Below are positions 18,177 through 36,412 of a DNA stretch of 64,000 bases, in pieces (within the stretch, counting starts at the first letter, position 1; each line of letters starts with the position of its first letter). The notes below the pieces were generated by a model. That model saw only the letters and a program-made list of their open reading frames with translations, made no database searches and was not told the DNA's origin. Source of the stretch: Candidatus Moraniibacteriota bacterium (lineage in GTDB: Bacteria; Patescibacteriota; Minisyncoccia; Moranbacterales; GCA-2747515); the NCBI GenBank assembly GCA_942490825.1, contig CALNYG010000013.1, forward strand, positions 189,359 to 253,358, in the 5' to 3' direction. The position numbers were made by a program, and so were the translations under genes.

Positions 18177-18202
18177 TAGAAAACTAAAGTAGACAGGCAT
18201 GG
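18177..18202 (+). repeat. left arm of the inverted repeat flanking orphan gene A
   Basis: tagaaaactaaagtagacaggcatgg. Confidence 0.8.
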
Positions 18203-18227
18203 TTTTTTGAAGTTGGAATTAGGAATA

Positions 18228-18254
18228 GGAAAAGAACGCCCTACGTTCTTTTCC
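18228..18254 (-). terminator. hairpin 12 nt downstream of orphan gene A
   Basis: Perfect 11-bp stem ggaaaagaacg/cgttcttttcc. Weak U tract. Confidence 0.45.
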
Positions 18255-18265
18255 CAGATAGAGGA

Positions 18266-18898
18266 TTACTCTTCGTTGTTAATATACGCTGCACTCGACG
18301 ATTGCTCCATAGTGATGGTTAACGTCCGCCTATTTCGCTGTATTTTAATCGGACCACACTCATATCGGCTCTGGTCTACTTCATATTTCAATGAAGCTTT
18401 TTTTGTTGTTTTTGGAAACCATGTCGTTCCGTTTTCAATTATTGGCAATATGTCAGCACTCATCCAGTCTTTCATCCATTGTGCTGAGTGAGCAATCTCA
18501 CTCTCTAGCATGCGAATCTCACTCTTGTTCAGGCTACTCCTTTCGGTTTGTAATCGTTGGTGAGCATTTTCTCCCCTTTCCCACATTTCTTTTTCATTTC
18601 CTCTAAGAACCATTTGTTTGGTACTCATAATTTTCTCTCCTGTTTCTTTGTTTGTAGGAATATAAACTTCCGTTGATGGTGTAGATGGTGTTGGTTCATT
18701 GCAATGTGGGCGGTTTGAAGCTCTTTGATTTCCTAAATCTGGTTTAAATATAGTATAGGCGAATCCTGCTAATACAAACAAACAAGCCACAGCTGTGCCA
18801 AGCGTAAAATCTTGAGATTTCCCTGTTAATCCATAAAAAGGAATTAATCCAATAGCTCCAGAACCGATTATTATAGTTGCATCATTAAAAAATGACAT
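18266..18898 (-). CDS. orphan membrane protein A (two N-terminal TM helices, P/S/T linker, soluble C-domain)
   Basis: 210-aa ORF. SD GAGGAGGA lies 5-6 nt before the ATG. An 11-bp hairpin lies 12 nt after the stop. No family recognised. Confidence 0.6.
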   Translation of the reverse strand: MSFFNDATIIIGSGAIGLIPFYGLTGKSQDFTLGTAVACLFVLAGFAYTIFKPDLGNQRASNRPHCNEPTPSTPSTEVYIPTNKETGEKIMSTKQMVLRGNEKEMWERGENAHQRLQTERSSLNKSEIRMLESEIAHSAQWMKDWMSADILPIIENGTTWFPKTTKKASLKYEVDQSRYECGPIKIQRNRRTLTITMEQSSSAAYINNEE

Positions 18899-18988
18899 AT
18901 TAATCCTCCTCTATCTAAAATTTTCTTCAGAAATTCCAAAAATCTAATTCAAAAATAATTTTATCTTTGAATAAAATTTAAGGAAAAC

Positions 18989-19010
18989 CCATGCCTACTT
19001 TAGTTTTCTA
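18989..19010 (-). repeat. right arm of the inverted repeat flanking orphan gene A
   Basis: ccatgcctactttagttttcta. Matches the reverse complement of the left arm at 22/22 positions with one 4-nt indel. Confidence 0.8.
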
Positions 19011-19038
19011 TTTGGTTGTCAAAAAACTATGATTATTA

Positions 19039-19067
19039 ATGTTAATATCATTAATTGAAAAAGTCAA
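19039..19067 (-). promoter_or_regulatory. candidate promoter for orphan gene A, outside the right IR arm
   Basis: The minus strand reads TTGACT-N17-TAACAT. Confidence 0.35.
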
Positions 19068-19108
19068 GCCCATTTTAGCGGAGCTCAGTAAATCTTCCAA
19101 AACTACTA

Positions 19109-19137
19109 TTGACTTTTTAGATATTTGGGTGTAGATT
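19109..19137 (+). promoter_or_regulatory. candidate promoter for the orphan B-C-D operon
   Basis: TTGACT-N17-TAGATT, about 90 nt upstream of ATG 19229. Confidence 0.45.
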
Positions 19138-19228
19138 TATATATCGTTCAAATGTAGTTCTTTTATTAACGAAATCATATTTTTGAACGAGTTATGGTTT
19201 TTATTGAATATTGGTTAGGAGGGAAGTT

Positions 19229-19660
19229 ATGAAATGGCTAACAAAGCTTAAAAAACGAATTAAAACGGATTTTCCTGAACCACCATTTTATCCTCCTGTG
19301 GAAAGTGATGGCGGAGGAGGTGGTGGTGAGAGAGCCTTGGTTCCAGTTTCAAAAAATGATTTAAATGATGATGGAGTCAAAAGTGGCGTGTATCGCGTTT
19401 CTTTGTGCGGTAAAAAAGCATTATTGTCAATTAATTTAGACATGGAAGATATGTGCTGTTTCTTTTTACAGGAAGCGGAACCTCGAAGATTTCCATTGAA
19501 TGAATTAAGTGAGTTCAAATGTGACCATAAAAACCCTTTGAAGAATACAGAGGTAAATCATATTCTTATGCGGGATACAGCTTATGGAACCAACAAAAAA
19601 GTCGAAGATCTGGCGGGGATATATGAGGCCTTAATAAAATTTAGTAAGGACGGGGGATAA
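19229..19660 (+). CDS. orphan protein B (143 aa; PP-rich and Gly6 linker)
   Basis: ATG 19229 is preceded by AGGAGGG at 19217-19223. The ORF-track TTG start at 19211 is rejected. No family recognised. Confidence 0.6.
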   Translation: MKWLTKLKKRIKTDFPEPPFYPPVESDGGGGGGERALVPVSKNDLNDDGVKSGVYRVSLCGKKALLSINLDMEDMCCFFLQEAEPRRFPLNELSEFKCDHKNPLKNTEVNHILMRDTAYGTNKKVEDLAGIYEALIKFSKDGG

Positions 19661-19664
19661 ATCC

Positions 19665-19994
19665 ATGAGGAAAGATAAATGGTACAGGAAAGTTGATCTT
19701 CTCTATATTTTCGGTCGAGAGGTTCATCTTTTACCTAAAGATGAAGTTGAGATTGACTTAGAAAAAACATCTAGTGCTGAAATCAGAATCAGAATTACTA
19801 CCAGCAGGTCTTTACCTTGCTCGTCTGTTCGTATCAATATGGACAGCGATATCTTGACGGAAGTTATAAGTTATAAAGATGATATTATTTTCCGCATTGC
19901 AAGTTGTTTAAAAGAAAATAAAAAAATAACCAAAGACGATGTGGAGGATATTATTAATAATATTATAATACAAGAAATGTCGCCTGAATGGTAA
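19665..19994 (+). CDS. orphan protein C (109 aa)
   Basis: Starts 4 nt after the stop of B, preceded by the G-rich SD GGACGGGGGA. No family recognised. Confidence 0.6.
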   Translation: MRKDKWYRKVDLLYIFGREVHLLPKDEVEIDLEKTSSAEIRIRITTSRSLPCSSVRINMDSDILTEVISYKDDIIFRIASCLKENKKITKDDVEDIINNIIIQEMSPEW

Positions 19995-20004
19995 AGGAGG
20001 GATT

Positions 20005-20241
20005 ATGAATTGGAGATTTAAGTCAGGAAGTACGAGGACTACTACTCCTCAAGATGAAAGTACAACTGCCACTGTTCAACAAGGTGTCAGTCAGTCCTCT
20101 CCAGTTTCAAATTCAAAAGATGACTTAGGTATAGTTGGTGCGATAATAATTTTTTTGATTTTTGTATTTATTGTCGCAAATGCTTTATTTGATATTCCTT
20201 TGAAAAATCTTCGGAAAAAAAAGAGCGATGAGTTGGAGTGA
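20005..20241 (+). CDS. orphan protein D (78 aa, S/T-rich N-terminus, single C-terminal TM helix)
   Basis: Starts 10 nt after the stop of C with SD AAGGAGGG. Followed by an intrinsic terminator. Confidence 0.55.
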   Translation: MNWRFKSGSTRTTTPQDESTTATVQQGVSQSSPVSNSKDDLGIVGAIIIFLIFVFIVANALFDIPLKNLRKKKSDELE

Positions 20242-20247
20242 TAAGAT

Positions 20248-20286
20248 GGGCAGTTGAGGAAAACCTCAACTCGCCCGTTTTTTTTA
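20248..20286 (+). terminator. intrinsic terminator after orphan gene D
   Basis: gggcagttgagg-aaaa-cctcaactcgccc (one bulge) followed by a T8 run. Confidence 0.7.
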
Positions 20287-20294
20287 TCAAAAAA

Positions 20295-20323
20295 ATGACA
20301 ATTCAAAAAAAATATAGTAGAAT
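20295..20323 (+). promoter_or_regulatory. candidate secDF promoter
   Basis: ATGACA-N17-TAGAAT. Confidence 0.4.
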
Positions 20324-20379
20324 AAAAGAGACTTGGGATTACTGAGTCTTATTTTCGTTATGTAATAAACCAAAACAAT

Positions 20380-23013
20380 ATGAACAAGAAAATCAGAAAT
20401 AAGTTTATTTTAGTAGTACTTTTCGCAGTATTAATGGGAGGAATCGCAACACCAAGAATACCGTATTTACCAGAAAAAGCACAGAGCTATTTAGATAAGT
20501 TCAAAATAAATTTAGGATTAGATTTACAAGGAGGACTACATCTCGAATACGAAATGGATTTATCACAAGTTCCTGATGACAAAAAGAAAGACGCAATCGA
20601 TGCAGTACAAGCAGTCGTAGAAAGGCGAGTAAATGCTTACGGAGTCGGAGAACCAGTTGTTCAACACGCAAAAAGAGGTGAACAAAATTTTCTTATCGTA
20701 GAATTTCCTGGTGCAGAAGATGTTGAAGATGTAAAAAATGTAATTGATAAAACACCATTTTTACAGTTTAGAGAAGAAAAAAACGAAGAAGAATTAAAGA
20801 CTGACGAGGAGATTTTTGTGTCTGTTAATGAGCAGGTCAGAACAGCGGCACAAGAGACATTAGATAAAATAAACAATGGAGAAAATTTTGATGATATTTA
20901 TAATGAACAAAGTCAAGGATTTGGAATTACAGATGAAGATTTAACATTTACAGAAAAAGGCTTATTACCAGCTGAAATAGAAAATGTAGTTTTTGCTGAT
21001 GAAATGGCAGACAATTCAGTCCATAGAGATTTAATTGAGACAGATCAAGGATTTTTTATTGTCAAAAAGTTAGAGACACAAGGTGAAGGCGATGAAAAAA
21101 AGGTGAAAATTAAACCTTTAAGCTTTGGTAAACAATCACCTGAAATGTATGATGAATTTAAATATAAAGCTACTGATTTAGATGGAAAACATTTAGAACG
21201 AGCCGATGTTAGTTTTTCTGGTGGGGGAGTTGGGATAGGATCTCCGAGTGTTAGTTTGCAATTTGATGATGAAGGAACAAAACTTTTTGCGGAGATTACT
21301 AAAAGAAACTTAAATAAAACAGTTGCTATTTTTCTTAAATATGGCGATGATCCAGAAGAATTAGTCAGTGCACCAGTTGTAAATGATGAAATTACAACAG
21401 GTCAGGCAGTGATTAGCGGAAACTTTACAATAGAAGAGGCAAAAGAATTAACAAAGAGGCTGAATGAAGGAGCGTTGCCAATTCCGATTAAATTAGTTTC
21501 GCAACAAAGTATCGGAGCATCTTTAGGGTTAGAATCTTTGGCGATGGGATTGAAAGCAGGAATGATTGGATTGATTTTTACCATGATTTACATGATTCTT
21601 TATTATCGTGTGTTTGGAATTGTGGCATCAGTAGCTTTGATAATCTATGCTTCAACTATTGTTTCGATTTTTAAAATTTCTGGAACAATGCCTCAGGGGA
21701 TGGCAATTACATTAACTTTAGCGGGAATTGCGGGACTTATTCTTTCAATTGGTATGGCGGTTGATGCTAACGTTTTGATTTTTGAAAGAATTAAGGAAGA
21801 ATTAAAAAAAGGTAAATCTTTAAAATCTGCAGTAAATGAAGGGTTTGAAAGAGCTTGGTCATCTATTCGTGATGGTAATTATTCTACAATTATTACATCT
21901 TTTATTTTAATGACGGTTGGAGCTGGTTTTGTAAAAGGTTTTGCATTGATTTTGATTATTGGTGTTTTGATTTCGATGTTTACAGCAATTGTTTTAGTAC
22001 GAATTATTGCTCAGTTTATTTCTAGAGACTGGCTTGAAAATAATACTTGGTTAATTTTTGGATTTAGGAAAAGGGCTAAAGTTGAAAATACTGAAGAAAA
22101 GAAATTTTTGCAAATTCTCGACAAGAGAAAATTTACTTATATTTTTTCAGTAATATTAATTGGAATAAGTATTTTTTCACTTTCAAATTGGGGGTTGAAG
22201 TTAGGAATTGATTTTGTGGGTGGAACTTTGGCTGAGTTTAAAATTTCAGAAGGAATTGAGGCACCAGATACTGAAAAAATTTGCCAATCGTTAGGTGATG
22301 GTGAATGTAATGAAAGTTTTACTTCGCAAAAGAGTGATGATAACCATATTATTATTCGATATAAACAATCAAGTGAAGAATTTAATCAAAAAGTTTTGAC
22401 AGCAGTAAAAGAGATTGACCCTAATGCTGAACAGCTACGAACTGACTTTATCGGTGCAACAATTTCTGATCAGTTAAAAAATGGAGCAGTTAAGGCTATT
22501 ATACTATCTGTGGTGGCTATCTTACTTTTCATTGCTTGGTCTTTTCGAAAAGTTTCTTATCCTGTTTCTTCTTGGAATTATGGTTTGGGAGCGGTATTGG
22601 CGTTGGCTCATGATGTTATTATTGTGTTGGGAGCGTTTGCATTTTTGGGTTATTTTTATGATATTGAAGTCGGAGTTCCTTTTATCGCAGCATTGCTTAC
22701 GATTTTAGGTTATTCAGTTAATGATACGATTGTGGTTTATGATCGTGTTCGAGAGAATGTTATTCGTACTCGAGAGACTGGTGATTTTGAGAAATTGTTG
22801 AATCGTTCACTAAATGAGTCTTTGGCGAGATCTTTAAATACTTCACTTACTGTTGTGGTTGTGTTGATTTCTGTTATTTTGTTTGGCGGTGAATCTTTGC
22901 AGAGTTTTGCGATTGCGATGTTAGTTGGTGTGGTAGCAGGAACTTATTCGTCTATGTTTGTAGCAACGGCTTTTATTGCTAGTGTTTTTAGATATAAGAA
23001 AAATAAGCAGTAA
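20380..23013 (+). CDS. secDF: protein translocase subunit SecDF fusion with an extra periplasmic insert
   Basis: SecD motifs LGLDLQGG and SIGASLG with 6 TM helices. The SecF part (GIDFVGG) adds 6 more TM helices in one 877-aa ORF. Confidence 0.9.
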   Translation: MNKKIRNKFILVVLFAVLMGGIATPRIPYLPEKAQSYLDKFKINLGLDLQGGLHLEYEMDLSQVPDDKKKDAIDAVQAVVERRVNAYGVGEPVVQHAKRGEQNFLIVEFPGAEDVEDVKNVIDKTPFLQFREEKNEEELKTDEEIFVSVNEQVRTAAQETLDKINNGENFDDIYNEQSQGFGITDEDLTFTEKGLLPAEIENVVFADEMADNSVHRDLIETDQGFFIVKKLETQGEGDEKKVKIKPLSFGKQSPEMYDEFKYKATDLDGKHLERADVSFSGGGVGIGSPSVSLQFDDEGTKLFAEITKRNLNKTVAIFLKYGDDPEELVSAPVVNDEITTGQAVISGNFTIEEAKELTKRLNEGALPIPIKLVSQQSIGASLGLESLAMGLKAGMIGLIFTMIYMILYYRVFGIVASVALIIYASTIVSIFKISGTMPQGMAITLTLAGIAGLILSIGMAVDANVLIFERIKEELKKGKSLKSAVNEGFERAWSSIRDGNYSTIITSFILMTVGAGFVKGFALILIIGVLISMFTAIVLVRIIAQFISRDWLENNTWLIFGFRKRAKVENTEEKKFLQILDKRKFTYIFSVILIGISIFSLSNWGLKLGIDFVGGTLAEFKISEGIEAPDTEKICQSLGDGECNESFTSQKSDDNHIIIRYKQSSEEFNQKVLTAVKEIDPNAEQLRTDFIGATISDQLKNGAVKAIILSVVAILLFIAWSFRKVSYPVSSWNYGLGAVLALAHDVIIVLGAFAFLGYFYDIEVGVPFIAALLTILGYSVNDTIVVYDRVRENVIRTRETGDFEKLLNRSLNESLARSLNTSLTVVVVLISVILFGGESLQSFAIAMLVGVVAGTYSSMFVATAFIASVFRYKKNKQ

Positions 23014-23028
23014 AAAGCTGTAAAGTTT

Positions 23029-23088
23029 CCTGTCATTCTGAACGCAATAAATTTATCGCAGATAAATTTATGAAGTGAAGAATCCCCC
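23029..23088 (+). repeat. A-family palindromic unit A1
   Basis: cctgtcattctgaacgca + hairpin ataaatttatc-gca-gataaatttat + gaagtgaagaatccccc. Confidence 0.9.
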
Positions 23089-23114
23089 AAAGAGAATCAC
23101 AAAACCAAAAATTT

Positions 23115-23399
23115 ATGGAAAAAACCTATTACGTTTATATTGCAACAAATAAATGGAATACAGTTTTATACACGGGAGCAACGAGTAATTTAGAAAATAG
23201 AATTTATCAACATAAAAATAAAATAATAAAAGGTTTTACAAGTAAACATAATATTTATAAATTAGTTTATTATGAAACCTTTTCAAATCCTGATGATGCG
23301 ATATTAGCTGAAAAGAAAATAAAAGGTTGGACGAGAAAAAAGAAAATTGATCTCATTGAAAAAGAAAATTCAAAATGGGAGGATTTGAGTGTAATTTAA
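23115..23399 (+). CDS. GIY-YIG (URI-domain) nuclease family protein, 94 aa
   Basis: YYVYIATNK...VLYTGATSNLENRIYQHK...YYE core. Confidence 0.85.
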   Translation: MEKTYYVYIATNKWNTVLYTGATSNLENRIYQHKNKIIKGFTSKHNIYKLVYYETFSNPDDAILAEKKIKGWTRKKKIDLIEKENSKWEDLSVI

Positions 23400-23419
23400 A
23401 AGGTTCGTGTTTCTTTTTT

Positions 23420-23479
23420 GGGGGATTCTTCACTTCTTTATTTTTTTAACAAAAAAATAAATCCGTTCAGAATGACGGG
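23420..23479 (-). repeat. A-family unit A2 (inverted)
   Basis: gggggattcttcacttc + hairpin tttattttttt-aac-aaaaaaataaa + tccgttcagaatgacggg. Confidence 0.9.
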
Positions 23480-23534
23480 TAAATTTGAATGATTTATAAT
23501 AATTTAAAATTAATTAACAATTAAATTAAAAAAT

Positions 23535-23924
23535 ATGGGAATAAAAGATTTATTTAAAAAGAAAAAAGATCAAAATATTGATCCAGTACAGGCTCAAAAG
23601 AAGATGCAATCGATGATGGGCGGGCAACAGATGCCAGAAATTACTGATGAAATGATTGACCAAATGTTAGCAGGGGATATGCCAGGAATGCCGAAATTAG
23701 GAATGATGCAAAAGATGGCGATCAAAGGTTTGAAAAAAATGAGTTCAGAAAAACGTCAGGAAGTTTTTGCTCAGGCTTTTGGTAAGATGGGTGAGAAGGG
23801 TGGCGAGAGTAAAGAGGAAATGTTAAAGCAAGTTGAAGAAATGCGTGCGAATGGACAATTGAATTCTAAGCAATATAAGATTTCACTAAAGAGAATTGAA
23901 CAGATGTTTAAAGGAAAAAATTAA
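23535..23924 (+). CDS. hypothetical Met/Gln/Lys-rich protein
   Basis: 129-aa ORF of low-complexity M-rich sequence (MMGGQQMPE, GDMPGMPKLGMMQKM). No family recognised. Confidence 0.5.
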   Translation: MGIKDLFKKKKDQNIDPVQAQKKMQSMMGGQQMPEITDEMIDQMLAGDMPGMPKLGMMQKMAIKGLKKMSSEKRQEVFAQAFGKMGEKGGESKEEMLKQVEEMRANGQLNSKQYKISLKRIEQMFKGKN

Positions 23925-23931
23925 CTTAAGT

Positions 23932-23967
23932 AAAAAAAGAGCATCACAGGAGTCGATGCTCTTTTTC
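23932..23967. terminator. bidirectional terminator shared by 23535-23924 (+) and 23976-24098 (-)
   Basis: Stem agagcatc/gatgctct, flanked by an A-run on the left and a T-run on the right. Confidence 0.6.
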
Positions 23968-23975
23968 GTGACGCT

Positions 23976-24098
23976 CTACTTGTTCAGTAGATATAGCATA
24001 AGCCCTCCAAATATTAAACCGGGAAACCCAACCATGGGAATAGAAAATCCCCAAACTATCAAGAAAACAAACCCTATATTTAATAAATTCTTCCCCAT
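23976..24098 (-). CDS. unlisted 40-aa hydrophobic peptide (MGKNLLNIGFVFLIVWGFSIPMVGFPGLIFGGLMLYLLNK)
   Basis: Below the ORF-track length cutoff. AGGAGG (24104-24109) lies 5 nt before the ATG. The stop is followed by the 23932-23967 hairpin. Confidence 0.45.
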   Translation of the reverse strand: MGKNLLNIGFVFLIVWGFSIPMVGFPGLIFGGLMLYLLNK

Positions 24099-24185
24099 TT
24101 TTTCCTCCTAATGATTTTGACTTTTCTCGAGATTGGAAAATTTTTTAAACAAAAAATCAATATTTAATTTTAAATTATTATTATT

Positions 24186-25112
24186 ATGTCAAGCGTAATT
24201 TTTAAAAATCCAAAAATATTTGTCATAATTTTAAATTATAATGGCGGAAAAGATTTATTAAAAACCATTGAAAGTGTGGTTGAATCAGATTATTTAAACT
24301 TAGAAATAATTTTGGTGGATAATAATTCTTCTGATGATTCTTTAAATTTAGCTAAACAATGGGTTGCAACCCATTGTTCAAGTGAGAATAAATTTCCAAA
24401 AGTTCACTTTATTAAAAATAAAAAAAATTTAGGATTTGGAGCCGGGAATAATATTGGAATAAAATATGCTTTTGAGAATGGTGCGGATTTTGTTTTTCTT
24501 TTAAATAATGACGCTTTAGTTCAAGAAAATACAATTTCTAATTTAGTTGATTCTATTAAGAACGAAAAAAATATTGGATTAGTAAGTCCTATAATTTATT
24601 CAGATTTAGATTACAAAAAAGTTTGGTTTTCTGGTGGAAAAATAAATTGGTGGAAAATGCGAGCGGAACATGTTCAGTATTTGACTGAACAAGGGGTCAT
24701 GACCCCTTGTTCAAATGATAATAACGTTATTCAATCAGATTTTATAACAGGTTGTGCAATGTTGATTAGTCGGGATATTTTTGAAAAAGTCGGATTATTT
24801 GATGAAAATATTTTTCTTTATTATGAAGATACTGATTTGTCTTTGCGAGTGAAAAAAGCTGATTTAAGAAATTTAGTTGTTGCAAGTTCAAAAGTTTTTC
24901 ATGCAGAGAAAAGTGAGGAAAATCAATCCAAAAAAATTTATTGGTTGGTTCTGTCAGGAGTTTATTTTTTTAAAAAACACGCAAAAGACTTTTGGAAAAT
25001 TTATTTGAGTATTTATTTATTTTTGCGAAAGTTTAAGAATTTTTTAGATGCGAAGTTTCGACCGAATGAGGTGAATTTGGCGGTTGAGAGGGCTTATGGA
25101 GACATTGATTGA
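24186..25112 (+). CDS. glycosyltransferase family 2
   Basis: IFVIILNYNG, LVDNNSSDDS, LLNNDA, YYEDTDLSLR. Confidence 0.8.
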   Translation: MSSVIFKNPKIFVIILNYNGGKDLLKTIESVVESDYLNLEIILVDNNSSDDSLNLAKQWVATHCSSENKFPKVHFIKNKKNLGFGAGNNIGIKYAFENGADFVFLLNNDALVQENTISNLVDSIKNEKNIGLVSPIIYSDLDYKKVWFSGGKINWWKMRAEHVQYLTEQGVMTPCSNDNNVIQSDFITGCAMLISRDIFEKVGLFDENIFLYYEDTDLSLRVKKADLRNLVVASSKVFHAEKSEENQSKKIYWLVLSGVYFFKKHAKDFWKIYLSIYLFLRKFKNFLDAKFRPNEVNLAVERAYGDID

Positions 25113-25158
25113 ATGTAATTTTAGGATAGTTGGGTTTGTGAATTTTGTGTTTTTCTGT

Positions 25159-25218
25159 GGGGGATTCTTCACTTCATAAATTTATCTGCGATAAATTTAT
25201 TACGTTCAGAATGACAGG
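25159..25218 (-). repeat. A-family unit A3 (inverted; 59/60 identical to the reverse complement of A1)
   Basis: gggggattcttcacttcataaatttatctgcgataaatttattacgttcagaatgacagg. Confidence 0.9.
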
Positions 25219-25281
25219 TTAATTTATCGGAATTTTTATGATCATAATAATATGGCAAATTCTAGATTTTCTTTTAGTTGA

Positions 25282-25301
25282 AAAGCCTGTGCGGCGAGCA
25301 C
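25282..25301 (+). repeat. GC-rich 20-mer, copy 2
   Basis: aaagcctgtgcggcgagcac followed by a T-rich run. Confidence 0.9.
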
Positions 25302-25356
25302 TTTATTTTTTTTAAAAATTAAAATATTAGTTTTAAGTAACTTTTGTAGAGAACAA

Positions 25357-25385
25357 TTGACATTTTCGGTTAAATAGATTAAAAT
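25357..25385 (+). promoter_or_regulatory. candidate rpsB-tsf promoter
   Basis: TTGACA-N17-TAAAAT, about 110 nt upstream of the rpsB ATG. The leader contains hairpin cctgtctaatt-tta-aattagataagg. Confidence 0.5.
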
Positions 25386-25493: not shown

Positions 25494-26265
25494 ATGACTA
25501 CTGAAAAAGTGGTAAAAAAAGCTGAAACTTCAAAGAAAGAAGTTTCAAAAGAAGTAAAAGAAGTAAAAACAAATGTTTTTGCTGATTTTGACTTTGATTC
25601 ATTAGAATTAACAATGCCTACATTATTGAGGGCAGGAGCGCATTTTGGGCATCAAAAATCGCGTCGTAATCCAAAAATGAGTCCGTTTATTTATACGACA
25701 AGAAATAATATTAATATTATTGATTTAGCTAAAACTGTTGAGTTGATGAAAGAGAGTTTAGATTTTCTAGCAAAGGTAAAGGAAAGTGGAAAACAAATTG
25801 TTTTTATTGGAACAAAAAAACAAGCTCAACCATTAGTGGTTGCAGTAGCTGAAATGACAAAAAACCCTTATGTTATTGAAAGGTGGTTAGGAGGAACTTT
25901 TACAAACTTTTCTAATCTTAGAAAGAGAGTTCGATATATGACTAGTTTGAAGGTTCAGATGGAGACTGGTGAACTTAAAAAATATACAAAATTTGAACAA
26001 GCAAAAAAGAAAGAAGAATTTGAAAAGCTTGATCGTCGAATGGGTGGTTTAACTGATATGCGAGATCTTCCGGGAGCAATTTTTGTAACAGATGTTGAAG
26101 CTGATAAATTAGCAATTAAAGAGGCTAAAAAAGTAGGGTACAGTTGTTGCAATTACTGATACGAATGTTAATCCAGATGAAGTTGATTATTTAATACCTG
26201 CTAATGATGATGCTGTTTCTTCATTGAAATTCATTCTTGCACATGTTTGCAAGATTTTAAAATAA
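25494..26265 (+). pseudogene. rpsB: 30S ribosomal protein S2, reading frame broken near 26137-26142 (true frameshift or assembly error)
   Basis: The first frame gives LLRAGAHFGHQ...IKEAKKVG, then nonsense and a stop at 26159. The +1 frame from 26137 gives [27 protein letters not shown], the normal S2 C-terminus, ending at 26265. Confidence 0.85.
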
Positions 26266-29508: not shown

Positions 29509-29520
29509 TTTTTAAAGTCT

Positions 29521-29558
29521 TTCGTTCCTCAGATTCTCGCCTTCGCGGGAATGAGACA
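29521..29558 (-). repeat. degenerate relative of the gtcattc...gaatc repeat families
   Basis: The reverse complement reads tgtctcattcccgcgaaggcgagaatctgaggaacgaa. Confidence 0.35.
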
Positions 29559-29795
29559 TGAATTGGAAGATTTTTTTTTAGGATACTGTTTTACAGCTGG
29601 TTCCGAATGTTTTTAGCGAAGTTTTTAATTTATATTTAAAGTTTGTTGTAAAATTTTTTATTGAAACGTGTGAGGGGTTAAAAACCCGTTCTGCAGTTGC
29701 TTGTCTGTTTTAAGCATTAGAAAACTATTAAGATTACTATGCGATTTTGGGTTGGAAAATTTTCTAACCTCTACATTGCAATAACGTGATGTGTT

Positions 29796-30885
29796 TTATC
29801 TTTTCAACTTCAACCCAGAATCAGCCTGTAAAATTTTATAATTATCCAAACATTCAGCACGTTCAGTCTCAGACATCTTTTCCCAACGGTTGGCCGCAGC
29901 CAAAGCAATCATCGTAGCATTGTCCAAACAATACGTAAACGGCGGAACAGTAAAATCAACACCAGACAATTCATCATTCACAGCCGTTTCCAAGTCAGAT
30001 CGCAACTTTTTATTAGCACTAACACCACCAGCCAACACAACCGATTTAACACCAAATTCTCGAGTAGCTTTTATAGTTTTTTTAATTAAAACTTCAGTAG
30101 CAGCCAATTGAAATTCATTCGCAATTTTATCGATAAAATTTTCAGGAAGTGAATCTTCTTTAGAAAGATTGTTTTTTTCTCGAAAAGTTCTGATAGCATA
30201 AAGAGATGCAGTTTTCAATCCAGAAAAAGAAAAATCATAATCCTTTGTATTAATCATTGGGCGGGGAAGTTTTATTTCGTCAAATTCAGAATTTTTATTT
30301 TCTTCAAATTCTTCAGCTTTTTTATCGATGATTGGTCCGCCAGGGTAACTTAATCCTAACATCCGTGCAACTTTATCATAAGCTTCACCAACAGCATCGT
30401 CTTGTGTTTCGCCAACAATTTCATATTGCAAATGATCCCTCATTAAAATTAATTGAGTATGCCCACCTGAAACCACCAGAGCCAAAACAGGGAATTGAAC
30501 ATCTTTATTTTCTGCCCAGTTAGCGTAAATGTGACCTTCAGTGTGACTGAATACCCAAAAGTGGTTTTTGCCAAGCGTGAGCGAGCGATTTTGCGGTTGT
30601 AACGCCGACGAGGAGAGCAGGAATTAAACCTGGTCCTTGTGTGACGGCAATTAGATCAATGTCGTCTTTGGCCATTTTTGCTTCTTCGAGTGCTTCTTTC
30701 AAAACTGGAATTATGTTTTTTGTGTGTTCTCGTGCGGCTAGGTTTGGTACAACGCCACCCCATTCAGCATGAAGTTCAATTTGGGATGATACGACGTTGG
30801 CTAGTATTTCTGTTTTATTGTTTTCTGATTTTATGATGGCGATTGCTGTTTCGTCGCAAGATGTTTCGATTGATAGAATATTCAT
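29796..30885 (-). pseudogene. tsaD: tRNA N6-adenosine threonylcarbamoyltransferase TsaD, frame broken near 30538-30552 (true frameshift or assembly error)
   Basis: The N-terminal ORF (SIETSCDETA...AKSLAHAWQKPLLGIQSH*) ends at a TGA. The adjacent frame continues SHTEGHIYANW...LVVSGGHTQL...DDAVGEAYDKVARMLGL. Confidence 0.85.
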
Positions 30886-30927
30886 GATTTTTGATAATTA
30901 AAATTTAATAATTTTTAAATAGAATAG

Positions 30928-30987
30928 CTTGTTATTCTGAACGAAATAATTTTTATTTTATAAAAATTATGCAGTGAAGAATCTCAG
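30928..30987 (+). repeat. A-family unit A4 (diverged flanks)
   Basis: cttgttattctgaacgaa + hairpin ataatttttat-ttt-ataaaaattat + gcagtgaagaatctcag. Confidence 0.8.
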
Positions 30988-31034
30988 TAAGTTTTTCTGG
31001 CGCTTTGGTAACTTTGAGTTTTTGTGATTCTCTG

Positions 31035-31094
31035 CGGGGATTCTTCACTTCATGAATTTATCTACGATAAATTCATTACGTTCAGAATGACAAT
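31035..31094 (-). repeat. A-family unit A5 (inverted)
   Basis: cggggattcttcacttc + hairpin atgaatttatc-tac-gataaattcat + tacgttcagaatgacaat. Confidence 0.85.
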
Positions 31095-31141
31095 AAAATT
31101 TACTGAATAATAGAAAGCTTTTTAAATTATGTATCAGAAAT

Positions 31142-31156
31142 AGCCTGTGGCGAGCA
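31142..31156 (+). repeat. GC-rich motif, copy 3 (shortened)
   Basis: agcctgtggcgagca followed by tttttt. Confidence 0.6.
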
Positions 31157-31229
31157 TTTTTTGATTTTTCAGTTGTTTAAATGATTAAAAGCGTGTTAGA
31201 TTTAGAATAGCTAAATAATCGAGTATTTT

Positions 31230-31835
31230 ATGGATTTATTGAATCATAAAAATTTAAAAGTTGACCAATATTCTGATCAGACTGATGAGGAAATTATAAC
31301 ACTGGTTCAGTCTGGAAAGCAAGAGTTTTTTGATGTGATCATTGAGCGTTATCGGGAGAAGCTGCCTTTTTATATTATGCGTTTTGTGAAAAATGAGGAT
31401 GAGGTGAAAGATGTTTTACAAAATGTTTTTGTGAAGTCTTTGAATGCGATTGATTCGTTTGATTGTGAGCGGAAGTTTTCGTCGTGGATTTATCGGATTG
31501 CTCATAATGAGGCGGTGAACTGGGCGACACGGAAAAATAAGCGGACTGTTTCGATTGATGATTTGGGCGTGCAGGATAGTAATTTTTTGGTGAGTGATGA
31601 TTTTGATGTTTCAATGGAGAAATGGTTTCATTTGGAGTTGAAGGATGCGATGAGGGAGGCGATTGGGAAATTGCCTGAAAATTATGCGGAGGTGATTCGG
31701 ATGCGGTATATTGAGGATATGTCGTATAAGGAGATTGCGGAGGTTTTGGATAAGTCGGTGAATAGTGTGGGGACTTTGGTTCGGCGGGCGAAAAAGAGGT
31801 TGTTGGGAATTGTGATTGATTCGGAGGGGCTGTAA
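31230..31835 (+). CDS. RNA polymerase sigma factor, ECF/sigma-24 type
   Basis: Region 2 FSSWIYRIAHNEAVNW and region 4 HTH MSYKEIAEVLDKSVNSVGTLVRRAKKRL. Confidence 0.85.
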   Translation: MDLLNHKNLKVDQYSDQTDEEIITLVQSGKQEFFDVIIERYREKLPFYIMRFVKNEDEVKDVLQNVFVKSLNAIDSFDCERKFSSWIYRIAHNEAVNWATRKNKRTVSIDDLGVQDSNFLVSDDFDVSMEKWFHLELKDAMREAIGKLPENYAEVIRMRYIEDMSYKEIAEVLDKSVNSVGTLVRRAKKRLLGIVIDSEGL

Positions 31836-31838
31836 AGG

Positions 31839-31867
31839 TTGACAAAAAAAGTAATAAGAGTTATATT
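31839..31867 (+). promoter_or_regulatory. near-consensus promoter for the orphan gene at 31924
   Basis: TTGACA-N17-TATATT. Confidence 0.55.
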
Positions 31868-31923
31868 GGTGAGCGGTAGAGTGTAGTATTTTGATTTCAT
31901 CTTAATATTCGAAGAGGTAGAAA

Positions 31924-32217
31924 ATGTCTAGTGAGCAAACTAATCATATTCAAGTTAATGATACAGAAATTATTTTTTGGCCTGATTTTGTAGAAAAACA
32001 AAGAAGGAATGTTATTGAGTTTCCTTATAGGGCTGAGATGATAGCTTATTTCTTTGGAAAAGAAGTTCAGGGAGTAACAGCACAAGGAAAAACATTTGAA
32101 GCTTTACTTGAACTTTATCGCCTGAATGGATGGTTAAATTCAGGCGTAACAAAGGAAGTTGTTATTGAAGGTCCCGACGTTTATATAACCATAAAACCTA
32201 ATACTCATAGTTATTAG
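31924..32217 (+). CDS. orphan protein (97 aa)
   Basis: Has its own near-consensus promoter, a GAGG SD 6 nt before the ATG, and an intrinsic terminator. No family recognised. Confidence 0.5.
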   Translation: MSSEQTNHIQVNDTEIIFWPDFVEKQRRNVIEFPYRAEMIAYFFGKEVQGVTAQGKTFEALLELYRLNGWLNSGVTKEVVIEGPDVYITIKPNTHSY

Positions 32218-32233
32218 CAACACTGTTTGCATC

Positions 32234-32269
32234 TGCGTGTACTTTCTATAAAGTGCACGCAATTTTTTT
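32234..32269 (+). terminator. intrinsic terminator after orphan gene 31924-32217
   Basis: tgcgtgtac ... gtgcacgca (8 of 9 bp paired) followed by attttttt. Confidence 0.6.
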
Positions 32270-32307
32270 ATTATGTATTTAAGATGAATGTAAAAATGTT
32301 AACTCCT

Positions 32308-33201
32308 TTATTTCCAAACACACAATCGATCCAAATCAGCTAAATCTTTTTTAAATATAATTTTAGCATTTGGAAAATAATTTTTTATTTTTTCGGTTAA
32401 ATAATTTGGTTGTTCAGGATTGATTTCAAAATAAATAGTAAACTTTTTATTTTTATTAAAAATTTCTTTTATCTCTTGAGTGAGTCTGTCATAATGATTT
32501 AAACCTTCATCGTCTGACCAAAGTGCAATTTCCGGTTCAAATTTTAAAGCTTTCGATTCATCTTTTTTAAATAAATCATTTTTAAAATCTTCATTAACAT
32601 AAGGAAGATTAGCAATTAAAATAATTTCACCAGCAAAGTCTTTAATTTCTTTTCGCAACTTTTTATGTTTCAATAAATCAGATTTGTAAAAGTTTATTTT
32701 ATTTTTAACTTTATGATGAATAGAATTTATTTTTGCAACTTTCAAAGCTTTGTCTGAAATGTCAGTGGCAATAAATTCAAAATTATTATTTTTGTATTTT
32801 TCTAATTCTTTTGCTAAAGTTATTGGAATAATTCCACTTCCTGTTCCGATGTCTAAAATCAAGTAATCTTTATTTTCGCTATTTTCAATTTGTTCTAAAA
32901 CATTTTCGATAATTAATTCAGTTTCAGGGCGGGGAACTAACGTGTTTTTATTTACAAAAAAAGCTCTTCCGTAAAATTCTTTTTCTTTTGTTAAATAGGC
33001 GATGGGAATATTTTTTTCACGTTTTTTTAAACTCCTTTCAATTTTAAAAGTTTGCCAGAAACTTAGTAAGTGTTCAGGATGAGCGAGAATAAAGACTCTA
33101 TCTTTTTCTAATTCGTGGGCGATTAAAATTTCAATTTCAGTTAGCTCGACTTTTTTGTGCCATTTTTTAAGTAGTTCTTGAATTGTTGTTTTTTTGAACA
33201 T
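32308..33201 (-). CDS. prmC: release-factor glutamine N5-methyltransferase
   Basis: SAM-binding LDIGTGSGIIPI and substrate motif ANLPYV (an NPPY variant). Confidence 0.8.
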   Translation of the reverse strand: MFKKTTIQELLKKWHKKVELTEIEILIAHELEKDRVFILAHPEHLLSFWQTFKIERSLKKREKNIPIAYLTKEKEFYGRAFFVNKNTLVPRPETELIIENVLEQIENSENKDYLILDIGTGSGIIPITLAKELEKYKNNNFEFIATDISDKALKVAKINSIHHKVKNKINFYKSDLLKHKKLRKEIKDFAGEIILIANLPYVNEDFKNDLFKKDESKALKFEPEIALWSDDEGLNHYDRLTQEIKEIFNKNKKFTIYFEINPEQPNYLTEKIKNYFPNAKIIFKKDLADLDRLCVWK

Positions 33202-33230
33202 AATTTTTTTATTTGCGAATTATAAGGTAT

Positions 33231-33302
33231 GTCATTCCGGAAGACATAATTTGTTCACGAACGGAGTGAGTGATTACAAATTAGTCTATCCGGAATCTAC
33301 AC
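33231..33302 (-). repeat. B-family-related unit B3a
   Basis: gtcattccggaagacataatttg ... ctatccggaatctacac. Confidence 0.6.
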
Positions 33303-33316
33303 TTTAAGATTTGAGA

Positions 33317-33399
33317 AAACCTAGAGTATAGATTCCGGATAAATTATTTTCTATTTCATCGCTACGCTCTGAAAGAAAATATATTTTCCAGAATGACAT
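33317..33399 (+). repeat. B-family unit B3b
   Basis: aacctagagtatagattccggataaattattttctat ... aaagaaaatatattttccagaatgacat. The flanks match B1 and the core differs. Confidence 0.8.
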
Positions 33400-33425
33400 G
33401 TTTGGGAGTTTGAAAATTGAATAAC

Positions 33426-33453
33426 TTGACAAAAATGCATTTTTTGATATAAT
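33426..33453 (+). promoter_or_regulatory. near-consensus promoter upstream of the gene at 33530
   Basis: TTGACA-N16-TATAAT with a TG extension (TGaTATAAT). Confidence 0.5.
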
Positions 33454-33529
33454 GGTGAGTTATGTTTTAATCTAGTGATTTAAGAATAAAACAAGAATTA
33501 AAATTTATATCCGTTTAATTGAATTTTTT

Positions 33530-34609
33530 ATGAACAAAATAAGTTTAACTTTAATAACTGTAATAGTCGGAGTTTCGTTGGTTTTCACATTTTTACAAAT
33601 GGAAAAGCCAGCTTTTGGAATGGAGAATAAATTTATTGTTGTGCCTCAAAATTCAATTGTTGCGAATGATATGAACAATATTATTAATAATATAGTAAAT
33701 ATAGCTAGCGAGCAACAAAATAACGAATTACTTCAAAAAAATCGAGCGATGGTTGAAATTGAAAGATTGGATGAGACTAGCATGTTTCAAGTTACTGTAT
33801 TAGCTCAAAGTGAAAAAGACGTTAAAGAATTGAGTGAACAAGTTACATATAATGTTTTAAAAGATATTTCTAAATACTACGATGTCAAAACAGATGTTAA
33901 TATTAATCTTGTAAATGATAGTGAAATTAAAAAGAATATTTTAAATGGAATTTTGCCAATTGTATTTTGGGCTTTGGTTGGGATTTTGGTGAGTATTTTG
34001 GTAGTGATGATTGTTGAATTATTTACGCCAAAAAGGAGAGAAGAAAAAGTTGTTGATTTGAAAAATATGATTAATAGTAAAATTGAATCAAATAACGTTG
34101 ATTCTGTAGTAATTTCAAATAATGACAAAATAGAGAATAATATAAAAGAATCTGCACCAGTTTATAATTTACAGGATTCTAGGGATCTGAATGTTAATGA
34201 AAATTACGAATTTAATTCTTTTCAAAATATTAATAAGAAAGTTTCCAATGTCAATGAGAATGCAGAGCAGTTAGGAGAAGTTGTAACAGGAAGTAGTGGC
34301 GAGTCTACTGAAGAAGAGGTTAATGAAGAGACTGTTGAAGAGATTGTGAAAGAAGTGGAAGCTGAAAATGATTCTGGGGTGGAAGTGTCTGATGAGCCTA
34401 TTATTGAAAAGAAAATTGTTACAAGTAGTAATTCAGTAGCTAGCCGTTCGGGAGCTCCGAGTAATTTACCAGTTGCAGATTTTGATTTTAGTAATTTCGC
34501 ATCAAGCGAAAAAGCTATTCCAAAAGAAAAGGATAAAGCTGAGAGCGATGAGCCAACCGAAGAAGAATTGAAAGCTAGACTCAATAAACTTCTAAAAGGA
34601 GAAATGTAG
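33530..34609 (+). CDS. bitopic or two-TM membrane protein with an acidic C-terminal tail (Wzz-like topology, unassigned)
   Basis: A TM helix at the N-terminus and another around residue 150. E/S-rich tail. The topological resemblance to chain-length regulators is weak. Confidence 0.45.
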   Translation: MNKISLTLITVIVGVSLVFTFLQMEKPAFGMENKFIVVPQNSIVANDMNNIINNIVNIASEQQNNELLQKNRAMVEIERLDETSMFQVTVLAQSEKDVKELSEQVTYNVLKDISKYYDVKTDVNINLVNDSEIKKNILNGILPIVFWALVGILVSILVVMIVELFTPKRREEKVVDLKNMINSKIESNNVDSVVISNNDKIENNIKESAPVYNLQDSRDLNVNENYEFNSFQNINKKVSNVNENAEQLGEVVTGSSGESTEEEVNEETVEEIVKEVEAENDSGVEVSDEPIIEKKIVTSSNSVASRSGAPSNLPVADFDFSNFASSEKAIPKEKDKAESDEPTEEELKARLNKLLKGEM

Positions 34610-34619
34610 AACCTGAAAT

Positions 34620-34650
34620 AAAAACTCGCTTAAAGCGAGTTTTTATTTTG
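34620..34650 (+). terminator. intrinsic terminator after the gene ending at 34609
   Basis: aaaaactcgc-ttaaa-gcgagttttt followed by a T-rich run. Confidence 0.6.
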
Positions 34651-34679
34651 TTGACTTTCAGGTGTCGTAAGTGTAGAAT
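34651..34679 (+). promoter_or_regulatory. promoter for the efflux adaptor gene
   Basis: TTGACT-N17-TAGAAT, immediately after the 34620-34650 terminator. Confidence 0.5.
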
Positions 34680-34706
34680 TTTAAGATATGTTATTAATAT
34701 AATTTT

Positions 34707-35840
34707 ATGAAAAAAATTAGTAAAAAAGTAGGGGATTTTATTAAAAAATATCCGATGGGATTTTTCTTTGTTTCATTGGTAATTCTTTTAATTATTATAA
34801 TTATTGGAAATAAAATTCGTGAAGTAAAAGATATTGAAGAAGTAAAAACTGAATCAATAAAAAAAGTTTCTACAATTCAAATTAAAGATAAACAGTATGT
34901 AAATCTTTCAGGACAAGTTGAAAAAGGCGGTGTAGTTACAATTTTTTCACAAATTTCTGGTGTAATTAATAAAGTTTATGTGGAGGAAGGTTCAGAAATT
35001 AATCAGGGAAAAAGTATTGTATATATTGCAGATAATTATAGTGGAGGCAATAGTGCTTCTGTGGCTTATCAAATTGCAGAACGTCAGGTTCAAAATCAGG
35101 ATGAAACCATAGAAAGGCAATTAAAGGTATTTAATGATCAGCGGAAAGTTGCAAGAGCAATTGAAGGTAAAGCAGGTAAAATTGCTCGACGACAAGCTAC
35201 AATTCAGAAACGTAATACAGAAATGCAGTATGATTTGACAATTTTACAAGAGAAGCAAGCGGCAATTAATGTTTCATATCACACACCTACATCTCCGTTT
35301 ACTGGAAATGTAGAGCGTGTTTTTGTTAAAAAAGGAGAGACTGTAAATGCAGGAAGTAAAATTGCGGTTATTAATTCAAATGATAAAGAATTAAGTATCG
35401 CAGTAAATATCAGTTCTTCATTAGCGAGTGTTATTGATGTGGAAAATGCGAGTATTTTAAGTATTGGTGATGAACAGATTGAAATTTTTCCGACATATCT
35501 TTCGGAAAGCGAAATAGATAATCAGTCTTATGTTGTTATTTATGAACTAGAAGATAAATATATTGACAAGGTGGCGAATAATGAATTTATTGATATTTCA
35601 ATTCCAGTTAATGCTCAGGTGTCAGAAAATGAAATTATTATTCCTTTGGATGCGGTGCGTTTGATGAATGATAAGTCTGTAGTGTTTATTTTAGAAGATG
35701 GTGTTGCGAAGTCTCGGGAGGTAACTACTGGTGATGTGATGGGTAATTTTATTGTTGTGTATGGTGGAATTGGTGAAGATGATTTGATTATTCTAGATAG
35801 AAATGTTTTTGATGGGGATAGAGTTGAGTTGGGAAAGTAG
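34707..35840 (+). CDS. efflux transporter periplasmic adaptor (membrane fusion protein)
   Basis: TM anchor. Lipoyl-like halves GVINKVYVEEGSEINQGKSIVYI and GNVERVFVKKGETVNAGSKIAVI. C-terminal beta domain. Confidence 0.75.
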   Translation: MKKISKKVGDFIKKYPMGFFFVSLVILLIIIIIGNKIREVKDIEEVKTESIKKVSTIQIKDKQYVNLSGQVEKGGVVTIFSQISGVINKVYVEEGSEINQGKSIVYIADNYSGGNSASVAYQIAERQVQNQDETIERQLKVFNDQRKVARAIEGKAGKIARRQATIQKRNTEMQYDLTILQEKQAAINVSYHTPTSPFTGNVERVFVKKGETVNAGSKIAVINSNDKELSIAVNISSSLASVIDVENASILSIGDEQIEIFPTYLSESEIDNQSYVVIYELEDKYIDKVANNEFIDISIPVNAQVSENEIIIPLDAVRLMNDKSVVFILEDGVAKSREVTTGDVMGNFIVVYGGIGEDDLIILDRNVFDGDRVELGK

Positions 35841-35954
35841 AGTTTTTAATTTAAAAAGTTTTTTGAAATTTTGATTTATAAAAAAAGACCCTACACCAAG
35901 ATGTTACTATGGCATAGGGTTGTTGCAGATTAATTGAAATTTTAAGGAAAGAAT

Positions 35955-36317
35955 TTATTCTTCAGTTAAGATCGCTTCTCCATAAAGGAACAATGTTAAT
36001 ATAAAGGAGACATCGTTGTATTCAGTAGTAAAAACGGCAACGTTTTTGCATGAACTTTCAAAACCCTTGAAGCAAATTCTTTCCACCTGGAGTGTTACTG
36101 TCGATTTCATATTTTTAAAGTATACTTGATTATCTATGATTGCCAAGCATTTAAAAATTTTTGGAGAAGATAATCGATAGAATTGCCCGATTTTTAGCTT
36201 GGGTGAATTTACATGAGTAATATGACTTCTTTTATCTTCAGGTGTCAAAGCATTCCAATTTGAATTTGTTATGCTTCGAAATCTAGCTTCATTTCCAGTC
36301 ATTTGCATTGTTTTCAT
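35955..36317 (-). CDS. orphan protein (120 aa) antisense to the efflux genes
   Basis: Consensus promoter at 36384-36412 on the minus strand. GAGGA SD 7 nt before the ATG. No family recognised. Confidence 0.5.
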   Translation of the reverse strand: MKTMQMTGNEARFRSITNSNWNALTPEDKRSHITHVNSPKLKIGQFYRLSSPKIFKCLAIIDNQVYFKNMKSTVTLQVERICFKGFESSCKNVAVFTTEYNDVSFILTLFLYGEAILTEE

Positions 36318-36383
36318 GGATTATTCCTCTAGTATTTTGAATTGAGTTGTGATGAACTAATTTAAATTTATCTGTAACTCCAA

Positions 36384-36412
36384 ATTATAGCAGAAAAATA
36401 AAAATAAGTCAA
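36384..36412 (-). promoter_or_regulatory. consensus promoter for the antisense orphan gene 35955-36317
   Basis: The minus strand reads TTGACT-N17-TATAAT. Confidence 0.55.

Follow-up and report, generated by a model that had tools for sequence, protein, structure and literature searches.

Can a bacterium whose conserved genes are started without Shine-Dalgarno (SD) sequences carry textbook SD sequences on another class of genes? This question is raised by a 64,000-nucleotide stretch of a Candidatus Moraniibacteriota genome (contig CALNYG010000013.1, positions 189,359 to 253,358; hereafter the window, numbered from its first letter). An earlier note on this DNA had described A/T-only leaders in front of about 37 assigned genes and GGAGG-like elements in front of seven small unassignable open reading frames (ORFs), and had proposed either two initiation regimes in one genome or a recent acquisition of the seven ORFs from an SD-using source. 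The closest SecDF relatives (81-86% identical) are Candidatus Moranbacteria or Moraniibacteriota, the best SecDF and SecD matches among 5.8 billion proteins are Moranbacteria, and the SecD matches, named Moranbacteria or Parcubacteria group, place the organism within the Parcubacteria. The window has a GC content of about 30% and encodes LytR, glycosyltransferases (GTs), MFS, S41 peptidase, MreB, the F-type ATP synthase operon, a fused SecDF, rpsB and tsf, together with four tRNAs, TsaD, an extracytoplasmic function (ECF) sigma factor, PrmC, an HlyD/RND pair, PMT-type glycosyltransferases, Nudix, an epimerase and TspO. A metagenome scan with a two-sequence SecDF profile gave only distant relatives, L002 and L003. 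The sole ribosomal protein gene of the window is rpsB (rpsU is not in it), and rRNA genes were found neither in the window nor in the seven relatives' loci that were scanned.

SD strength was expressed as the duplex energy (ΔG) between the 20 nt upstream of each of the 64 window ORFs and 5'-CACCUCCUUUC-3', the canonical anti-SD, from which the lineage's own 16S 3' end may differ. An SD was called at -6 kcal/mol or below, and the strong class was set at -9 kcal/mol or below. Seven ORFs passed the first threshold, and they are precisely those that had been picked out by eye:

18266-18898, minus strand: orphan gene of 210 amino acids, ΔG -12.1 kcal/mol
19229-19660, plus strand: orphan gene of 143 amino acids with a homologue, P0129, ΔG -10.7 kcal/mol
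19665-19994, plus strand: orphan gene of 109 amino acids, ΔG -9.0 kcal/mol
20005-20241, plus strand: orphan gene of 78 amino acids with a C-terminal transmembrane helix, ΔG -12.5 kcal/mol
23976-24098, minus strand: hydrophobic peptide gene of 40 amino acids, ΔG -10.2 kcal/mol
31924-32217, plus strand: orphan gene of 97 amino acids, downstream of the ECF sigma factor gene, ΔG -7.2 kcal/mol
35955-36317, minus strand: orphan gene of 120 amino acids, ΔG -6.1 kcal/mol

The remaining 57 ORFs all lie at -4.9 kcal/mol or above, with a median of about +1, the strongest pairing among them being that of rpsB (AAGGA, -4.9 kcal/mol). Five ORFs reach -9 kcal/mol, compared with 0.55% of intergenic 20-mers (p = 3e-5). 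The threshold of -6 kcal/mol is reached by 4.9% of intergenic 20-mers, so that the weak sites of 31924 (GAGGT) and 35955 (GAGGA) are individually within chance. Four of the six intergenic GGAGG pentamers of the window are placed 4-6 nt ahead of an orphan ORF start, and an independent motif scan of the window (SD core, start codon and an ORF of at least 25 amino acids) gave no additional case at a gene start. Both halves of the proposed dichotomy are thus borne out by the duplex energies, the chance level of the two weak sites apart; Pfam also agrees with the gene assignments on which it was built (atp, mreB, secDF, rpsB, tsf, GTs, RND, Nudix and the epimerase). The second cassette gene truly starts at ATG 19229 rather than at TTG 19211. 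A perfect AAGGAGGT is also present at 59942-59949, 23 nt upstream of the ATG of an unannotated 191-amino-acid ORF (59973-60548) for which there is no nearer alternative start; the site lies beyond the normal SD distance and could be a remnant, or else a displaced or stand-by site.

The leaders of the core genes have a composition of their own. No G occurs at positions -20 to -1 in 21 of 51 core leaders, against 5% expected from intergenic composition; A makes up 50-67% of bases at -13 to -3, T reaches 84% at -1 and G accounts for about 5% of leader bases. Core leaders are G-depleted, beyond mere AT-richness. A search for an alternative leader motif that could pair with an altered anti-SD was unproductive, the enriched 5-mers being only generic A/T.

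Is this split a property of the window or of the lineage? The same scoring was applied to the SecD(F) neighbourhoods of eight non-redundant assemblies from NCBI, ENA, JGI and Logan, so that the sample consists of the 64-kb window and about 150 kb of relatives' loci rather than whole genomes. Their SecD(F) identities to the window are:

L004: 86%
L005: 84%
L006 (same genome as L001): 81%
L011: 66%
L009 (complete genome CP175956.1): 57%
L015 and L016: about 53-57%
L010: 51%

Taking the window and the relatives' loci together, an SD was found in 0 of 117 Pfam-assigned genes and in 32 of 84 unassigned genes (Fisher p = 1.1e-14). In all eight relatives, genes with a Pfam family or a window homologue have A/T-only leaders, and strong SDs are confined to unannotated ORFs that have no counterpart in the window. 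Conserved unannotated genes are SD-less as well, for example the 129-amino-acid gene adjoining secDF that is present in all relatives; the dividing line is therefore conservation, not annotation. The SD core lies a median of 6 nt from the start codon, with 30 of 33 cases at 3-9 nt. About 16% of the genes are SD-led and none of them encodes a ribosomal protein. These counts are probably conservative, because in L004 an orphan of 140 amino acids is likely mis-started (its most likely start is an internal ATG with a GAGGA SD followed by a signal peptide) and an SD-led ORF between GT2 and secDF is uncalled. These data show that the SD split is lineage-wide.

The SD-led genes are 37-396 amino acids long and mutually unrelated, and no credible family was assigned to them from Pfam, PHROGs, PADLOC or NCBIfam. 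No match was obtained for the seven window orphans among phages and plasmids (tblastn), nor for four of the seven in viral-contig scans. Integrases and transposases are lacking among the window ORFs scanned, and neither an att site nor a donor could be identified. Between close relatives the SD-led genes are present or absent at recurrent insertion slots, and they differ from the host core in composition. Synonymous codon use of the window SD genes is atypical (log-odds 0.08-0.24, and -0.14 for the 40-amino-acid gene, where the median of the core is 0.29; p = 1.6e-5), and GC3, the GC content of third codon positions, is 0.30 against 0.20 in the core (p = 0.004), while overall GC is host-like (0.23-0.39). 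The enrichment of SD-positive genes for orphan status and, in the window, for atypical composition, which the earlier note had asked to be checked, is present. In five genomes, the first 10 codons of SD-led genes have a GC content of 0.33 against 0.23 for SD-less genes (p = 1.5e-4), and the median folding energy over -30 to +30 is -6.3 kcal/mol for SD-led and -2.9 kcal/mol for SD-less genes (p = 0.005), a difference caused in part by the G residues of the SD itself. The SD-led genes belong to the flexible or hypervariable gene pool. Three SD-led orphans of the relatives (L005 5073-6065, L012 1821-2402 and L009 8355-8630; the L012 contig, 2.5 kb long, comes from another relative) contain many paired CxxC or CPHC motifs resembling zinc ribbons, which hints that flexible genes may share a type of small nucleic-acid- or protein-binding protein.

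Recurrent use of one slot is best seen between the conserved 129-amino-acid gene and the GT2 gene, where the window, L004, L006 and L011 each have a differing minus-strand SD-led ORF (coordinates are those of the slot, strand and length those of the ORF in it):

window 23925-24185, minus strand: 40 amino acids
L004 6648-7026, minus strand: 85 amino acids
L006 13030-13643, minus strand: 132 amino acids
L011 7547-7976, minus strand: 86 amino acids
L005 3745-4050, minus strand: unannotated homologue, about 50 amino acids, of the window 40-amino-acid peptide, with AGGAGGA kept

The slot is a hot spot. The L005 homologue (about 3815-3971, minus strand; tblastn E = 8e-4) is syntenic with the window peptide. 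The 40-amino-acid product is very hydrophobic (MGKNLLNIGFVFLIVWGF...); in this and in its size it is reminiscent of small membrane toxins or regulators.

The four strong SD-led genes at 18.1-20.3 kb constitute a cassette, in which the 210-amino-acid gene stands opposite a three-gene operon. Around the coding sequences already listed, the following elements were identified by repeat search (inverted repeat), sequence match (promoter), reading of the sequence (terminators) and alignment to L012:

18176-18207: inverted repeat, left arm, about 30 bp
18228-18254, minus strand: hairpin terminator of the 210-amino-acid gene, GGAAAAGAACG ... CGTTCTTTTCC
18904-18912, minus strand: SD AGAGGAGGA, GGAGG core 6 nt before ATG 18898
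18984-19011: inverted repeat, right arm
19109-19137, plus strand: promoter-like TTGACT-17-TAGATT of the three-gene operon
19217-19224, plus strand: SD AGGAGGGA, 6 nt before ATG 19229; the L012 equivalent is GGAGGAG
19646-19657, plus strand: SD-like AAGGACGGGGGA within the 3' end of the upstream gene
19994-20001, plus strand: SD AAGGAGGG, 4 nt before ATG 20005
20248-20286, plus strand: intrinsic terminator of the operon, GGGCAGTTGAGG-AAAA-CCTCAACTCGCCC and a T run, kept in L012

The cassette (18077-20289) is absent from L001/L006 and from L004. A variant of it was found on L012, which shares with the window the end of the same GT gene with its terminator at 91% identity and the region of the divergent promoter and 5' untranslated region (5'UTR) at 79-92% identity; the operon terminator is recognisably the same. 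The left-hand gene encodes 210 amino acids in the window and an unrelated protein of 267 amino acids in L012, and the downstream proteins are barely alignable; all three cassette genes of L012 are SD-bearing. In the 143-amino-acid orthologue pair, GGAGG is placed at 5-6 nt in both members and the SD-proximal DNA is only about 58% identical. The cassette is not a fresh foreign insert. It is a resident hypervariable locus whose control DNA is conserved and whose cargo changes fast or is exchanged. The same inverted repeat of about 30 bp brackets the variable minus-strand gene in L012 (arms 150-169 and 1154-1173), which suggests that the segment between the arms may be invertible or exchangeable; no recombinase gene was found near the repeat, which does not occur elsewhere in the window.

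Large protein collections were searched with the 210- and 143-amino-acid proteins. The sole match of the 210-amino-acid protein among 5.8e9 proteins is itself, and the 143-amino-acid protein has one homologue among 1.84e9 representative proteins, P0129 on L012 (46% identity). AlphaFold2 modelled the former with low confidence (mean pLDDT, the predicted local distance difference test score, of 50) as two N-terminal helices, a long pair of helices at 101-147 and a C-terminal part rich in beta structure; we read the two N-terminal helices of this low-confidence model as possibly membrane-spanning. With its one homologue, the 143-amino-acid protein was modelled at a mean pLDDT of 39. The 5'UTR at 19137-19200 is 92% identical to that of L012 despite the hyperdiverged genes behind it and contains a hairpin, CGTTCAAA...TTTGAACG. 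A riboswitch-like function is unsupported for it, its folding energy being ordinary (z = -0.26) and Rfam giving no match.

The three remaining SD-led genes of the window are accompanied by the following elements, identified in the same ways, with the SD of the 40-amino-acid gene also aligned to L005:

23932-23966, minus strand: intrinsic terminator of the 40-amino-acid peptide gene
24103-24109, minus strand: SD AGGAGGA, 5 nt before the ATG, kept as AGGAGGA in L005
31839-31867, plus strand: promoter-like TTGACA-17-TATATT
31912-31918, plus strand: weak SD AAGAGGT, 6 nt before the ATG
32234-32270, plus strand: intrinsic terminator of the 97-amino-acid gene
35880-35920, minus strand: intrinsic terminator ACCCTA ... 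TAGGGT and a T run
36324-36330, minus strand: weak SD AGAGGAA, AGAGG core 8 nt from the ATG
36384-36412, minus strand: promoter-like TTGACT-17-(TG)TATAAT

Terminators follow all five SD-led units of the window and promoter matches of 9-11 out of 12 precede three of them; the promoter search gave nothing convincing for 18898 (minus strand) or 24098 (minus strand). Near-consensus sigma-70 promoters and hairpins had been ascribed to the orphans as a distinguishing feature. They are real, with the exception of these two starts, but they are not specific to orphans. The best promoter match of the region (12/12, 33426-33453) precedes the core gene 33530, another (25357-25385) precedes rpsB, and hairpin terminators also follow core genes. 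Since core genes have equally good signals, promoters and terminators fail to mark the orphans as foreign, and we rejected them as a sign of foreign origin; they are the normal signals of this organism.

What, then, would keep SDs on one class of genes only? We consider it somewhat probable that SD-dependent initiation has been kept for the fast-turnover flexible gene pool and that the core uses unstructured A/U leaders. Conserved genes would recruit the ribosome without SD pairing, through leaders that are long, free of G, made up of A and U and essentially unstructured, followed by A-rich first codons, having been optimised over long periods for initiation free of structure. Small lineage-restricted accessory genes would occupy recurrent intergenic slots as mostly self-contained units, with their own terminator and, where recognisable, their own promoter, and would be started from a canonical SD of the GGAGG type, located 4-8 nt before the start codon, to which the lineage's 16S rRNA would still offer a usable anti-SD. 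SD pairing would then act as a start signal that does not rely on the sequence surrounding and following the start codon. Such independence would matter for accessory genes, whose start regions have more GC, more structure and atypical codons and whose coding sequences are often replaced. Several points weigh against this proposal. The anti-SD may be absent here, making the SDs functionless; according to Tsurumaki et al. 2022 (PMC9297842) the CCTCCT motif is found in only 48% of Parcubacteria 16S genes. Translation of the orphans is predicted, from sequence. Two of the seven window SDs are no stronger than chance, SD retention in two orthologous pairs is statistically weak evidence (at a neutral identity of about 80%, each would occur by chance with a probability of roughly 0.3), part of the folding difference comes from the SD itself, and the atypical codon use fits recent import too.

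Recent import is the core of another explanation, which we regard as unlikely: the anti-SD would have been lost or permanently occluded, and the SD genes would be newcomers from phages, other bacteria of the Candidate Phyla Radiation (CPR) or hosts, whose SDs are undecayed leftovers. Their strain-specific occurrence, atypical codon use and GC3 speak for it, as does the lack of the anti-SD motif in about half of the Parcubacteria 16S genes covered by the text of PMC9297842. However, the pattern is found in nine genomes spanning about 50% SecD divergence and would need constant influx from an otherwise invisible donor pool. The 210- and 143-amino-acid proteins have at most one homologue in the large collections, no phage or plasmid relative was found for any of the seven and no viral one for the four scanned, and in AT-richness the SD genes match the host (GC 0.23-0.39). 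Of the six GGAGG sites in intergenic DNA of the window, four stand exactly at SD distance from an ORF start, and SDs persist in orthologues through 54% protein divergence (the 143-amino-acid pair, 46% amino-acid identity) and through gene replacement at one locus. We therefore favour two coexisting modes over unassimilated foreign DNA because of the class-level universality of the split, the tight SD geometry, the persistence of the SDs and the lack of a visible donor. Between the two ideas of the earlier note, that of two regimes is the better supported, by the lineage-wide split, the tight spacing and the SDs persisting in two diverged orthologous pairs; that of recent acquisition is supported only in part, having the strain specificity and the atypical codons on its side and being weakened by the host-like AT content, the lack of phage, plasmid or viral relatives and a main cassette that is resident, with conserved regulatory DNA. 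Birth of the SD-led genes de novo from intergenic DNA was rejected by inference, AT-rich DNA yielding A/U leaders more easily than a well-spaced GGAGG.

An anti-SD that is present and normally sequestered, with the SD serving as a regulatory tag for a ribosome subpopulation or for special conditions, seems to us improbable. It has a precedent in Flavobacterium johnsoniae, in which ribosomes without bS21 translate the SD-led rpsU (PMC9976891, PMC13000453), and both the A-rich, SD-free design of the core leaders and the strict separation of the two gene classes agree with it. Yet bS21 is reported as frequently absent from Parcubacteria in the text of PMC9297842, the single strong-SD gene of Bacteroidia contrasts with about 16% of genes here, of which none encodes a ribosomal protein, and nothing in the window bears on anti-SD occlusion. 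Finally, an artefact, either a chimera of CPR and SD-using DNA or spurious ORFs chosen for a chance SD, is very hard to reconcile with the data. The contig does have indel errors, with frameshifts in rpsB and tsaD, and two of the SDs are within chance. The flanks are nevertheless colinear with relatives on both sides of the junctions, the independent assembly L012 has a variant cassette joined to the end of the same GT gene, with 91% identity of the flanking DNA, and the pattern recurs in eight other assemblies from four sources (NCBI, ENA, JGI and Logan). ORFs of 97-210 amino acids with terminators are unlikely to be spurious in DNA of 30% GC, and the homologue of the 143-amino-acid protein is conserved at the protein level. 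Chimeric assembly, which had been raised as a trivial alternative, is rejected on the same grounds of colinear flanks, the L012 variant and recurrence.

Several known systems resemble what is described here in part. Bacteroidia keep the anti-SD yet initiate without SD (PMC7797042, PMC9976891, PMC13000453); their single strongly SD-led gene is rpsU, which forms an autoregulatory loop, the anti-SD being sequestered by bS21, bS18 and bS6 (PMC7797042, PMC9976891, PMC13000453, PMC13000457). The likeness lies in core genes without SD (here 0 of 57 non-orphan window ORFs and 0 of 117 Pfam-assigned genes reach -6 kcal/mol), in A-rich, G-poor, unstructured leaders of the "upstream adenine" mode and in a small gene set with strong canonical SDs. 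The differences are that strong SDs are not confined to rpsU here, with at least five strongly SD-led unassigned genes in 64 kb, and that the SD-led genes, about 16% of the total, are all unannotated and strain-specific, in a CPR lineage where bS21 is often absent. Closer in phylogeny, some of the Parcubacteria probably form no SD helices according to Tsurumaki et al. 2022 (PMC9297842), the subgroup without the anti-SD overlapping with one that lacks ribosomal protein uL1. That study concerns the same superphylum and the missing helices fit SD-less core genes; as far as its main text goes, it deals with rRNA only, describes neither mRNA leaders nor an SD-bearing gene class and makes no mention of Moranbacteria.

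The genomic arrangement is also reminiscent of mobile units. Phage "morons" and small genomic islets are autonomous promoter-gene-terminator units inserted between conserved genes. The SD-led units likewise have their own terminator and usually a promoter, lie between conserved genes, are variably present and are atypical in composition, but they reside in a bacterial chromosome without prophage context, integrase, att site or phage or viral homologues. They are not integron cassettes either, which form an array next to intI with an attC site ending each cassette: no integrase family appears in the Pfam results for the window ORFs, the units are scattered singly, and their 3' hairpins are followed by T runs as in intrinsic terminators.

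Some neighbouring elements deserve a description of their own. The ECF sigma factor gene (31230-31835) is the most atypical annotated gene (GC3 0.47, codon log-odds 0.03) and has no SD; it may form one accessory islet with the 97-amino-acid ORF behind it. The 97-amino-acid protein has no transmembrane segment and is hence unlike a classical membrane anti-sigma factor. A partly palindromic repeat of about 84 nt occurs at 23021-23104, 23417-23486 (inverted) and 25143-25226 (inverted); it flanks a small GIY-YIG endonuclease gene (23115-23399), which is absent from the corresponding L001 site, and is also present in L001 (3312-3375 and 8587-8674). Because it recurs 2 kb away and in a relative's genome, it is dispersed DNA resembling repetitive extragenic palindromes (REP) or miniature inverted-repeat transposable elements (MITE). 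Single frameshifts affect rpsB (25494-26159) at about 26138 and tsaD (30885-29796) at about 30500, the protein resuming in another frame; the rpsB C-terminus in the next frame is 85% identical to L005. Both frameshifts are most likely assembly indel errors rather than pseudogenes.

What is already known comprises SD-poor lineages such as Bacteroidia and cyanobacteria and the loss of the anti-SD in part of the Parcubacteria. Full-text literature searches combining Shine-Dalgarno with CPR, Patescibacteria, Parcubacteria or Moranbacteria returned only the rRNA-level remark of Tsurumaki et al. What is apparently new is the clean split between classes, with textbook SDs on about 40% of unannotated strain-specific genes and none on conserved genes, across a CPR class. 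If the SDs work, CPR ribosomes keep a second, selectively used recruitment mode, and SDs offer an inexpensive way of recognising, from sequence, the flexible and fast-evolving genes of unculturable organisms; if they do not, the SDs date an influx of genes from an unknown pool of donors. In both cases, gene callers need two start models per genome and start sites need re-checking, and the rules by which expression of genes in, or from, CPR bacteria is designed are affected. It is an improbable idea that Moranbacteria have two mechanistically separate initiation pathways partitioned by gene class, the SD-independent one for the conserved genome and the SD-dependent one for the hypervariable accessory genome, with anti-SD access as a single switch for the strain-specific genes. 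If it were true, access to the anti-SD, through occlusion, modification or ribosome heterogeneity, could switch all strain-specific genes or discriminate resident from incoming genes.

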